Source: Escherichia coli
Lineage (GTDB): Bacteria; Pseudomonadota; Gammaproteobacteria; Enterobacterales; Enterobacteriaceae
Length of the DNA stretch: 64,000 bases
Assembly: GCF_001677475.2 (NCBI RefSeq)
Contig: NZ_CP015229.1
Reading direction: 5' to 3' (one strand)
Numbering within the stretch: position 1 is the stretch's first letter; each line of letters starts with the position of its first letter. The position numbers were made by a program. Below are positions 6,001-9,000 of this stretch, one piece after another.

Positions 6001-9000
6001 TCAGATGTTCAGAAAGCTCTTTATGATCGGTACGCATTTCCAGTTCGATGCGGCTGTCGAGGTCTCTGTCCAGTGAACCATCGGCACGAAGACCGCGTGG
6101 ACGTGTTCCGGCAATCGGGTAGATCTCAATCTGGCGGCTGGTGGCGTCATACTTGAGCGAACTTTCCGGCGACGCGCCAAACAGGGTGAAATCATTATCC
6201 TGCATAAAAAACATGTACGGGCTGGGATTACTCTTTTTCAGCACGTAATAGGCCGCCAGTGGTGACGGGCATGGCAGAGAGAAACGGCGAGATGGCACCA
6301 CCTGGAAAATTTCTCCGGCGCGAATCGCTTTTTGCAACGAACGCACTACGCCACCGAACTCTTCATCGCTCTGATTACATTCACAACGCATATGCGGCAC
6401 GGAAACCACCGGCAGCGGCGGCGCGGTTTCGGTCAGTTGCTGACGTAGTTTGTTCAGGCGAGCAGTGAGACGTTGTTTTTCTTCTTCATTCGGAGCAAAC
6501 AGGCTGGCCTGAATGCGGGTGCTTTTTTTCTGATGGTCAATCACCATCAGCGTTTCAGCGAGATAAAAACAGAAATCAGGGCAGTTATTTTCCGCTGACA
6601 GTTGCGGTAAATCTTCAAACCCCGCCACAAGGTCATAAGAGAACAGGCCGCCGAAGAACATGGCTTCTCGTTCTTCCTTCGGTACATTCAACAGACTCTG
6701 CAATAAGCGGAAAGCGTCAAAAACCGAAAGGGAGCATAAGCGAGCGTCTTCATCCAGCAGTGGACTGACAGGGGGGAAGCGCAGCACACGGCAGTTTGGT
6801 GATTGTTCATTTTCCACACCCGCAGGCAGGGCGTTGTCCAGTAGTGCCAGCAGGGCTTCGCCATTGCTGGAAAGCGCCTGAATTGTGACAGTGTCACCTA
6901 ATGCTGTAATGCGCAGCGCACTGTCTACCAGTAGCAGGCTTTTTAAATCATCTTTGCTGTCGATATCTGCGGATTCCAGCAGCAGCGTTGCCGGACGATC
7001 CTCACACAACTGGTGGAAAAGCGCGGTGGGATTGTCGCGATAAGTGCCTTCGCAGGTTAGCAGTTCGAGAGTCGGTTTTTGTGTTTGCATTGTTATTCTC
7101 TAATTTTGTTCAAAAAAAAGCCCGCTCATTAGGCGGGCTGGGTATCTGATTGCTTTACGCATGGTGAATACACTGCCCGTTTCAGGAAGTGCGCCACCAA
7201 CCTTTCAGTACGAAAATTGCTTTCATTGTCGATACCCTTTTTACGTGAACTTGCGTACTAGTTAACTAGTTCAATGATTAATTGTCAACAGCTCATTTCA
7301 GAATATTTGCCAGAACCGTTATGATGTCGGCGCAAAAAACATTATCCAGAACGGGAGTGCGCCTTGAGCGACACGAATTACGCAGTGATTTACGACCTGC
7401 ACAGCCATACCACAGTTTCCGATGGCTGCCTGACGCCAGAAGCATTGGTGCACCGTGCAGTCGAGATGCGCGTCGGCACCCTGGCGATCACCGACCATGA
7501 CACCACAGCTGCAATCGCGCCAGCAAGAGAGGAAATTTCACGTTCGGGACTGGCGCTGAATCTAATTCCCGGCGTGGAAATTTCCACGGTCTGGGAAAAT
7601 CATGAAATTCATATTGTCGGGCTGAATATTGATATTACTCATCCGCTAATGTGTGAGTTCCTCGCGCAGCAGACAGAACGGCGCAATCAGCGGGCGCAGC
7701 AAATTGCCGAAAGACTTGAAAAAGCGCAAATACCTGGGGCGCTGGAAGGCGCACAACGACTGGCGCAGGGCGGCGCAGTGACGCGCGGTCATTTTGCGCG
7801 TTTCCTTGTTGAGTGCGGCAAAGCCAGTTCAATGGCGGATGTCTTTAAAAAGTATCTGGCGCGCGGGAAAACCGGATACGTTCCGCCACAGTGGTGTACA
7901 ATAGAACAAGCTATTGATGTCATTCATCATTCTGGCGGTAAGGCGGTGCTAGCTCATCCTGGGCGGTACAATCTTAGTGCTAAATGGCTGAAAAGATTGG
8001 TTGCGCATTTTGCCGAACACCACGGCGACGCGATGGAAGTCGCGCAGTGCCAGCAATCGCCCAATGAACGCACCCAGCTGGCGACACTTGCGCGTCAGCA
8101 TCATTTATGGGCATCACAAGGATCTGATTTTCATCAGCCATGCCCGTGGATCGAACTGGGTCGTAAACTCTGGCTGCCCGCAGGCGTTGAAGGCGTCTGG
8201 CAGCTATGGGAACAGCCGCAGAACACCACAGAGAGGGAATTATGAGCCAGTTTTTTTATATTCATCCTGATAACCCGCAGCAACGTCTGATCAACCAGGC
8301 GGTGGAGATCGTGCGTAAAGGCGGGGTGATTGTTTATCCAACTGATTCCGGCTATGCGCTCGGCTGTAAAATTGAAGATAAAAACGCGATGGAGCGTATT
8401 TGTCGTATTCGCCAGCTGCCGGACGGTCACAACTTTACCCTGATGTGTCGCGATCTTTCTGAACTCTCGACCTATTCATTTGTCGATAACGTTGCGTTTC
8501 GTTTAATGAAAAACAACACGCCGGGCAACTATACCTTCATCCTGAAGGGGACGAAGGAAGTGCCACGCCGTCTGTTGCAGGAAAAACGCAAAACCATCGG
8601 TATGCGTGTGCCTTCTAACCCGATTGCGCAGGCGTTGCTTGAAGCACTGGGCGAACCGATGCTTTCCACTTCGCTAATGCTGCCAGGCAGCGAATTTACC
8701 GAATCCGATCCGGAAGAAATTAAAGACCGTCTGGAAAAACAGGTAGATTTGATTATTCACGGCGGCTATCTCGGGCAGAAACCAACAACGGTTATTGATC
8801 TTACCGATGATACGCCGGTCGTGGTGCGTGAAGGCGTAGGTGATGTGAAGCCTTTCTTATAACAAATTGCGTTCCACGGATGGAAGATTATGGCAGGGAT
8901 AGATCGCTGCATTTTGCTGTTGATAGTTGGGCTTTTTTTCTCTTCGTTGAGTTATGCGAAAAACACGGAGATCCCTTCTTATGAAGAAGGGATCTCGCTC

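Follow-up and report, generated by a model that had tools for sequence, protein, structure and literature searches.

The native trp promoter, operator, trpL leader and attenuator upstream of an intact trpEDCBA operon in Escherichia coli

A promoter, a TrpR operator, a 14-codon leader with two Trp codons and an attenuator terminator are found together on the minus strand of the 64-kb stretch of Escherichia coli DNA that we analysed (hereafter, the window), directly 5' of intact trpEDCBA. These parts almost certainly constitute the native control region of the E. coli trpLEDCBA operon. It is an ordinary region that has been fully described already, and nothing about it is new. The preliminary description, which placed the elements at 7113-7290 and regarded them as textbook rather than novel, was right on both points: each element is present at those coordinates, all on the minus strand, and 320 of the 321 bases compared are the same as in a K-12-type genome (O16:H48). 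The features are the following.

7288-7283, minus strand: -35 hexamer of the trp promoter, TTGACA (-36 to -31), read directly and the same as in the K-12-type genome
7273-7254, minus strand: TrpR operator, a 20-bp near-palindrome (-21 to -2) centred between 7264 and 7263, with arms ACTAGTT/AACTAGT
7272-7255, minus strand: 18-bp operator core, GAACTAGTTAACTAGTAC, overlapping the -10 hexamer
7265-7260, minus strand: -10 hexamer of the trp promoter, TTAACT (-13 to -8), read directly and the same as in the K-12-type genome
7252, minus strand: transcription start (A, +1), by reference to the K-12 map
7239-7235, minus strand: Shine-Dalgarno-like AAGGG of trpL (+14 to +18), read directly
7226-7182, minus strand: trpL leader peptide ORF, 14 codons plus stop, from translation; trpL (WP_001700591.1) is annotated at the homologous E. 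coli position
7201-7159, minus strand: predicted hairpin 1:2 (pause/anti-antiterminator), nt +52 to +94; ViennaRNA fold of nt 50-95, -17.5 kcal/mol
7199-7194, minus strand: tandem Trp codons UGG UGG (+54 to +59), the sensing site, within the 5' arm of hairpin 1:2
7179-7134, minus strand: predicted hairpin 2:3 (antiterminator), nt +74 to +119; fold of nt 72-122, -15.6 kcal/mol
7139-7112 including the U8 run, minus strand: predicted hairpin 3:4 (intrinsic terminator/attenuator), stem +114 to +134; fold, -14.0 kcal/mol
7111-7091, minus strand: distal part of the leader, including the ribosome-binding region of trpE, up to the trpE AUG at 7090
5528-7090, minus strand: trpE ORF, 520 aa
7090-560, minus strand: trpE, trpD, trpC(F), trpB and trpA, full-length ORFs of 520, 531, 453, 397 and 268 aa

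The identification is carried by several lines of evidence. The Rfam model RF00513 (Trp_leader) matches 7205-7112 on the minus strand over model positions 1-100 of 100, with 93.1 bits, for a gathering score of 41, and an E-value of 1.1e-18. The -35 and -10 hexamers are separated by a spacer of 17 bp, which fits the 16-18 bp expected of a sigma-70 promoter, and the -10 hexamer sits within the core of the TrpR operator; by its sequence, TTGACA-17 bp-TTAACT is the sigma-70 trp promoter, and its spacing agrees with the known +1. Numbered from 7252 as +1, trpL has its AUG at +27, its Trp codons at +54 to +59 and its stop at +69 to +71, and the AUG of trpE lies at +163; these are the textbook K-12 trp positions. 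The operator core is a palindrome of two CTAG-containing half-sites, GNACTAGTT/AACTAGTNC, and occurs once in the 64 kb, where 0.02 chance matches would be expected; it can be classed as a TrpR operator of the E. coli trpEDCBA type.

A generic promoter scan around the region did not call the trp promoter, and its sole call was a weak plus-strand site at 7297-7325. The scan accepts a -10 hexamer only if its second base is A, which is not so in TTAACT, and this explains why the trp promoter is absent from its output; we therefore rejected the silence of the scan as evidence against the promoter. The same silence could be brought forward for the view that the region has decayed into a relic or resembles a control region by chance, being a short ORF and a hairpin that control nothing, as could the observation that shuffled 600-bp regions give about 0.7 terminator-like sites each in the terminator scan. 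This view has next to no credibility, however, and is effectively refuted by the Rfam match (E-value of 1e-18), the identity with K-12 at 320 of 321 bases and the conservation of the region, which is stronger than that of the flanking third codon positions; all five downstream trp genes are, moreover, intact.

Returning to the region as a genuine trp control region, the leader has the three mutually exclusive hairpins of an attenuator: hairpins 1:2 and 2:3 compete for segment 2, and hairpins 2:3 and 3:4 for segment 3. The antiterminator pairs CGGGC (nt 74-78) with GCCCG (nt 115-119), and the latter is also the 5' arm of the terminator. In the terminator and inverted-repeat scans, the attenuator hairpin and U-run that had been described appear as a 7-bp stem, AGCCCGC/GCGGGCT (7139-7119), with 6 GC pairs, followed by T8 (7119-7112); this terminator lies 21 nt 5' of the trpE AUG (7090) and on the same strand. 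The fold of the full leader has a z-score of -3.7 relative to shuffled sequences. It should be noted that folding the entire 141-nt transcript at equilibrium, with the ribosome footprint masked, did not give the antiterminator, because a 5' helix of nt 16-22 with nt 107-113 competes with it; the 2:3 structure was seen only when nt 72-122 were folded, which imitates the co-transcriptional order.

Translation of 7226-7182 on the minus strand gives the 14-codon leader, with TGG TGG at 7199-7194, as had been noted. That an ORF track overlooks the element is also correct, trpL having just 14 codons. The overlapping small ORFs within the leader (7161-7265, plus strand, 34 aa; 7129-7200, minus strand, 23 aa; 7100-7162, minus strand, 20 aa) were discarded as mechanical ORFs. 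The alignment with K-12 that had been proposed as a check was run, and it revealed zero differences that disrupt the hairpin or the tandem Trp codons.

From the work of Yanofsky and colleagues on K-12, the binding of TrpR, the pausing of the polymerase and the selection of a hairpin by the ribosome would be expected to operate here as follows. When tryptophan is plentiful, a Trp-bound TrpR dimer on the operator would block initiation. The transcripts that do start would carry a 162-nt leader, and RNA polymerase would pause once hairpin 1:2 has formed, until a ribosome starts on trpL. With charged tRNA-Trp in good supply, the ribosome would clear both UGG codons, reach the UGA stop and cover segment 2, leaving segments 3 and 4 to form the terminator, which together with the U-run would end transcription near +140. 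When tRNA-Trp runs short, the ribosome would stall at the UGG codons within segment 1, segment 2 would pair with segment 3, the 5' arm of the terminator would be sequestered and the polymerase would continue into trpE. From the full identity of the transcript with that of K-12 we infer that premature termination depends on Trp in this strain too. The normal TrpR repression and attenuation that the preliminary description foresaw may thus be expected, and would also depend on trpR, tRNA-Trp and TrpS. The gene trpR is located elsewhere on the E. coli chromosome; a tblastn search of the 64-kb window with TrpR, a query that was checked as Pfam Trp_repressor (100.4 bits), returned no significant match (best E-value, 1.7).

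The conservation of the region within E. coli is high. It is present in 5421 of 5426 complete genomes, with at least 99% identity in 5327 records; the 321 bp are identical throughout to those of O103:H2 strain 129, and the transcript (7252-7112) is the same as that of K-12 at every base. The equivalent region in strain 129 is annotated as trpL, Trp leader region and trpE. In the 273-bp intergenic region between trpE and rnm, a single difference separates the window from the closest full-length genome. The flanking genes, by contrast, diverge by 0.8-4.1%, mainly at third codon positions, and the low intergenic divergence fits purifying selection acting on the control region. The coordinates of the trp genes match the annotated E. 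coli D7 genome. Over the surrounding 36 kb, the best of the 5,426 complete E. coli genomes is only 97.8-98.4% identical, and the flanks of the window are less similar to Escherichia sp. E1V33 (95.8%), E. albertii (93.9%) and E. whittamii (92.7%). As these other Escherichia genomes are more distant than E. coli, we rejected them as the source of the window; the comparison covered E. coli, E1V33, E. albertii and E. whittamii, and it does not separate E. coli from Shigella. The possibility that the window had been artificially mutated was likewise rejected: the differences from the best E. coli genome are mostly at third codon positions and mostly transitions, and a public SRA assembly contains an exact 4.6-kb match. 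As for the suggestion that the element anchors the species assignment, it does so at the level of the genus Escherichia but not of the species, since E. albertii and E. whittamii have the same leader peptide.

The same parts recur in other species. The identical 18-bp operator core is found at 120 or more loci in the genomes of other species; among the 120 loci listed, nearly all have TTGAC at a fixed distance upstream of the core, and 98 have a short ORF with tandem Trp codons 3' of it. One of the listed loci, in Maribacter, looks like a chance match. In 63 distinct enterobacterial leaders that were aligned and compared with slid controls, TGGTGG is invariant (63 of 63) and GGTATC nearly so. 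Hairpin 1:2 is paired in 75% of cells, against 32-53% in its slid controls, and hairpin 2:3 in 83%, against 19-51%; the value for hairpin 3:4 is 92%, and the slid controls over all three helices range from 19 to 62%. Covariation in these leaders is limited to 1-2 pairs per helix that change on both sides, and for hairpin 2:3 it is not clearly above the shuffle controls. The stems hardly vary, which is why covariation is weak and adds little beyond the Rfam score.

When the region is set beside known systems, it shares with E. coli K-12 the leader peptide, the positions of the Trp codons, the three hairpins, the terminator, the U-run, the promoter hexamers and the 18-bp core, as well as its setting between the divergent rnm/yciV upstream and trpE downstream; it differs by a single C to T transition at -21, which is here a natural minority allele. 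The trp leaders of Enterobacterales (Citrobacter, Salmonella, Enterobacter, Kluyvera, Serratia and others) and of Vibrio have the same 18-bp core and TTGAC spacing, the same short leader ORF with WWR (tandem Trp followed by Arg), and the same CGGGC/GCCCG antiterminator core, GCCCGC/GCGGGC terminator and T-run. However, their peptide, loop and spacer sequences are different, and the leader peptides are 14-21 aa long at most of the Enterobacterales loci listed, up to 34 aa at a few of them, and 34-38 aa in Vibrio. In E. coli itself, the his, phe, thr, leu, ilvGMEDA and ilvBN leaders follow the same logic, in that each has a short leader ORF rich in cognate codons and its antiterminator and terminator hairpins exclude each other, but they belong to different RNA families, use different regulatory codons, and most of them are without the repressor/operator layer.

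The substitution at -21 deserves separate consideration. The claim that the operator, leader and attenuator are all intact holds for the leader, the Trp codons, the hairpins, the U-run, the hexamers and the 18-bp operator core, but not for operator base 7273 (-21), which is T here and C in K-12. This is the sole difference from the K-12-type genome in the 321 bp, and hence the only position at which the 20-bp symmetric region departs from that of K-12; it breaks the outermost pair, -21/-2, leaving 8 of 10 symmetric pairs, compared with 9 of 10 in K-12. The allele is found in 241 of 5381 matching E. coli records (about 4.5%). It is also carried by E. coli HS and O103:H2.

Might -21T be a quantitatively different allele, with altered TrpR occupancy or promoter strength and a shifted set-point of repression? 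That it is a real substitution, and the single change in 321 bp, speaks for this, as do its location, which falls within both the 20-bp palindrome and the promoter spacer and weakens the outermost symmetry of the operator, its minority status in E. coli (241 of 5381, about 4.5%), and the fact that the other Escherichia recovered (E. albertii, E. whittamii and E1V33) keep C at -21. Furthermore, -21 adjoins the G at -20, which we take to be a TrpR contact, and presumably also the outer GNACT half-site used in tandem TrpR binding. Against it stands the comparison across species: of the 120 same-core loci listed, 78 have C at -21, 40 have T, one has A and one has G; both pyrimidines are therefore compatible with a retained operator, and the mismatch is no argument against operator function. 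The position is also outside the 18-bp core and both promoter hexamers, and the consensus operator that was crystallised presumably has T at the equivalent flanking position. Among the known features of the operator are the TrpR Arg69/G-9 contacts, and the classic operator-constitutive mutations lie closer to the dyad, which again argues against a functional allele. We consider such an allele very improbable, and likewise that -21T acts as a functional natural variant by altering how the outer, tandem TrpR dimer binds or how strong the promoter is. If it did so, carriers of -21T would differ in basal or repressed trp expression and, hence, also in the level of the rnTrpL sRNA discussed below. 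A literature search on operator mutations and tandem TrpR binding, within a limited set of papers, yielded nothing relevant. The comparative data instead suggest that the change is tolerated, and it is probably neutral.

Besides its part in attenuation, the terminated leader of about 140 nt (rnTrpL), possibly with the 14-aa peptide (peTrpL), may act in trans as a dual-function sRNA, and we give this additional role an even chance. According to a review (PMC12612679, citing Li et al. 2021, RNA Biol 18:1324), the rnTrpL of E. coli is an sRNA of 140 nt that depends on Hfq, base-pairs with dnaA mRNA and affects sanA, mhpC, rsuA and bcr; the reported effects are destabilisation of the dnaA mRNA and regulation of the other four. 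The transcript at 7252-7112 being identical to that of K-12, any such activity should be retained in the present strain. The evidence for a trans-acting peptide comes chiefly from Sinorhizobium meliloti. The trpL of that bacterium resembles the present one in being a ribosome-dependent Trp attenuator whose terminated transcript (rnTrpL, with the peptide peTrpL) is active in trans (PMC6614838, PMC7968998 and the review PMC12612679). However, it has neither TrpR nor an operator, its transcript is 110 nt long and unrelated in sequence, and the targets of its rnTrpL are different (trpDC, sinI and rplUrpmA).

In summary, the trp operon in the window is complete and almost certainly functional, and it has the classic two-level control. 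The importance of this finding beyond annotation is small, and the region serves as a secure landmark for orienting the window, which covers the trp-rnm-yciO-yciQ-rluB neighbourhood of Escherichia. Although the lineage is about 2% removed from all complete E. coli genomes, its control region has been conserved far better than the coding flanks, and operator position -21 varies freely between C and T, both within E. coli and between species.

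The trp control region lies on the minus strand, as read directly from the sequence, and its elements are as follows.

Elements of the trp control region (window positions; plus-signed numbers are relative to the transcription start)
7288..7283, minus strand: -35 hexamer TTGACA, read from the sequence, with a 17-bp spacer to the -10 hexamer
7265..7260, minus strand: -10 hexamer TTAACT, read from the sequence
7252, minus strand: transcription start A (+1), placed by numbering
7239..7235, minus strand: trpL Shine-Dalgarno element AAGGG, from the sequence
7226..7182, minus strand: trpL leader ORF of 14 codons, from translation
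7199..7194 (+54..+59), minus strand: tandem UGG codons of trpL, from translation
7139..7119 (+114..+134), minus strand: GC-rich terminator hairpin AGCCCGC-N7-GCGGGCT, from the terminator scan and the inverted repeat
7119..7112, minus strand: run of eight T, entered directly from the terminator stem, from the sequence
7090 (+163), minus strand: trpE start codon, from the sequence

With +1 at 7252, the trpL AUG is at +27 and its stop at +69..+71; the positions of trpL, its Trp codons and stop, the terminator and trpE relative to +1 are the textbook K-12 coordinates. The interval 7113..7290 given in the preliminary description is accurate, since it begins a little 5' of the -35 hexamer and extends to the 3' end produced by attenuation. 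The downstream ORFs of trpE, trpD, trpC(F), trpB and trpA are all full-length, and the coordinates of these genes are those annotated in E. coli strain D7. A sigma-70-like site at 7297..7325 on the plus strand (TTCAGA, 17 bp, TATGAT) faces rnm/yciV (start 7364), away from the trp promoter, and it could serve rnm as a divergent promoter, back-to-back with the trp -35 region.

The trp control region is beyond what chance would produce. The Rfam Trp_leader model (RF00513) matches 7205..7112 on the minus strand over all 100 model positions with 93.1 bits (gathering score 41, E = 1.1e-18), the 64 kb contain the 18-bp operator core GAACTAGTTAACTAGTAC a single time (0.02 matches in shuffles), and the 141-nt leader has a folding energy of -46.9 kcal/mol (z = -3.7 versus dinucleotide shuffles). 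A generic terminator scan alone reached no significance (0.7 sites per shuffled region), and a generic promoter scan of the region, which demands an A at position 2 of the -10 hexamer, passed over the trp promoter with its TTAACT; neither outcome counts against the element.

A 321-bp query across the region found matches in 5421 of the 5426 complete E. coli genomes searched, with at least 99% identity in 5327 records, and the matching genomes annotate it as trpL, Trp leader region, trpE and rnm. When aligned with a K-12-type O16:H48 genome, the window has exactly one mismatch, T for C at 7273 (-21). Both promoter hexamers are the same as in K-12 and identity is complete from +1 to trpE, a stretch that takes in the leader ORF and every hairpin segment; the leader and attenuator are thus intact, as had been proposed, and no difference disrupts a hairpin or the Trp codons. 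The view that this is a textbook element rather than a novel one also holds: the homologous place is already annotated in thousands of genomes, the region is already known and nothing new was found in it. The trp leader is the case on which the concept of transcription attenuation was founded, and TrpR and the trp operator are among the best-studied repressor/operator pairs.

The 20-bp operator symmetry has its dyad centre between -12 and -11, and -21 is its outermost position. Calling the palindrome intact was therefore a slight overstatement, as 8 of 10 symmetric pairs are present versus 9 of 10 in K-12, although the 18-bp core is there. An exact 61-mer carrying -21T was found in 241 of 5381 matching E. 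coli records (~4.5%), including commensal strain HS, and O103:H2 strain 129 is identical to the window over the whole 321-bp region; by these counts, -21T is an established minority allele in E. coli. A scan for the exact core, with one genome per bacterial species, yielded at least 120 loci, among them loci of Citrobacter, Salmonella, Enterobacter, Kluyvera, Serratia, Yersinia, Pantoea, Vibrio and others. TTGAC stands at a constant distance upstream of the core in nearly all of the 120 loci listed, and in 98 of them the scan found a downstream short ORF with tandem Trp codons (WW). Of the listed loci, 78 have C at the position equivalent to -21 and 40 have T, while A and G occur once each, the G in a Maribacter locus that was rejected as an unrelated match. 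Because C and T alternate freely while the adjoining 18 bp stay identical, it is very unlikely that -21 is critical, and a measurable regulatory effect of the -21T allele would be quite surprising. Separately, a 96-kb plasmid of E. coli O157:H7 ATCC 43890 (NZ_CP045864.1; locus L123, 3001-3041) carries a stretch of 41 bp that exactly reproduces the upstream half of the trp promoter, stops just before -21 and precedes a 238-aa 'hypothetical' ORF and aph(3')-IIIa; it looks like an engineered tac/trc-promoter reporter cassette, not a natural trp element.

The DNA around the trp region is unexpectedly divergent from complete E. coli genomes. Among the 5,426 complete genomes, the closest full-length matches are 97.8% identical for 1..12000 and 98.4% for 12001..36000, and the closest strains are not the same for the two segments. 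The comparison with D7 gave 272 differences over 12 kb; 193 are transitions, the majority of all differences fall at third codon positions, and individual genes differ by 0.8-4.1%. Since third-codon-position transitions prevail, the divergence looks natural, and the public SRA assembly SRR24464998 has an exact 4.6-kb match to the window. The 273-bp trpE-rnm intergenic region contains a single difference, the -21 site, a pattern that fits strong purifying selection on the control region. The most divergent gene of the first 12 kb is yciQ (DUF2207; 8890..10785, plus strand), at 4.1% from D7; unlike in the trp genes, codon positions 1 or 2 account for 35 of its 78 differences, and it has a C-terminal Gly-rich tail, GGGAGGGAGGGGGGGW.

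The element had also been said to anchor the species assignment. It does so for the genus but not for the species, as E. albertii and E. whittamii have the same leader peptide. Over longer stretches, identity is highest to E. coli (97.7-98.4%), followed by Escherichia sp. E1V33 (95.8%), E. albertii (93.9%) and E. whittamii (92.7%), so that assignment to E. coli in the broad sense is reasonable. Complete E. coli genomes seem to include few representatives of the lineage, or it may be a Shigella or a rare phylogroup.

Elsewhere in the window, 21171..21374 (plus strand) is a full-length match to the enterobacterial sRNA STnc180 (RF02079; 193 bits, gathering score 50), just upstream of an 891-aa ORF (21504..24179) annotated as acnA in matching genomes. 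An accessory gene cluster at 36900..44700, found in 2043 of 5426 complete E. coli genomes and presumably absent from K-12, lies between a 262-aa ORF (35921..36709), which we take to be fabI from its length and the K-12 gene order, and downstream sap-like ORFs. According to Pfam, it encodes a TetR-family regulator, an RND adaptor, a 1035-aa AcrB-family pump, an outer-membrane factor and an MFS transporter.

Segment folds of the leader RNA reproduced the three classical alternative hairpins: 1:2, the anti-antiterminator (nt 52-94, -17.5 kcal/mol), whose 5' arm holds the Trp codons; 2:3, the antiterminator (nt 74-119, -15.6 kcal/mol); and 3:4, the terminator (nt 114-134, -14.0 kcal/mol). Hairpin 2:3 pairs CGGGC (74-78) with the 5' arm of the terminator, GCCCG (115-119), so that antiterminator and terminator are mutually exclusive. 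In an alignment of 63 distinct enterobacterial leaders, the helices derived from E. coli are paired in 75% (1:2), 83% (2:3) and 92% (3:4) of cells, versus 19-62% in slid controls (3' partner moved by 1-3 columns). As the stems hardly vary, they show few compensatory changes, and this is therefore a demonstration of conservation rather than strong proof of covariation.

The full-length fold additionally contains a helix between GGGUAUC, the trpL Shine-Dalgarno segment (7231..7237, transcript nt 16-22), and GAUACCC, which immediately precedes the terminator (7140..7146, nt 107-113). GGUAUC and GAUACC are paired in 60-63 of the 63 leaders, and in 87% of cells overall versus 5-44% in slid controls; we believe that this helix is the one known to switch off translation of the leader peptide on terminated transcripts. 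As for the leader peptides of relatives, Vibrio loci of the core scan (L015, L030, L044, L045, L063, L065, L072, L082 and others) share the identical 18-bp core and TTGAC spacing, and their peptides of 34-38 aa contain WWRTW, with a second WW in some; thus, two bacterial orders share the core but have diverged in the leader. Citrobacter loci (L003, L014, L019, L024, L054, L073 and others) and Salmonella arizonae L039 have an in-frame upstream ATG, conserved in several Citrobacter species, that overlaps the Shine-Dalgarno region and would add six residues to the leader (MKKVSEMKA... or MNRVSKMAA...); translation probably does not start there.

As the transcript is completely identical to that of K-12, the window's strain would be expected to follow the K-12 scheme: TrpR-Trp would bind the operator, polymerase would pause after 1:2, a ribosome stalled at UGG-UGG would favour 2:3 and hence read-through, and one reaching UGA would favour 3:4 and termination near +140. 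A tblastn search of the 64-kb window with a TrpR query, validated as Pfam Trp_repressor, gave no significant match, so that the normal TrpR repression proposed for this strain is a prediction. A review (PMC12612679) reports that rnTrpL, the terminated 140-nt leader transcript of E. coli, also acts in trans, with dnaA among the mRNAs affected. Because the predicted transcript equals that of K-12, any such trans activity should be retained in the window's strain.
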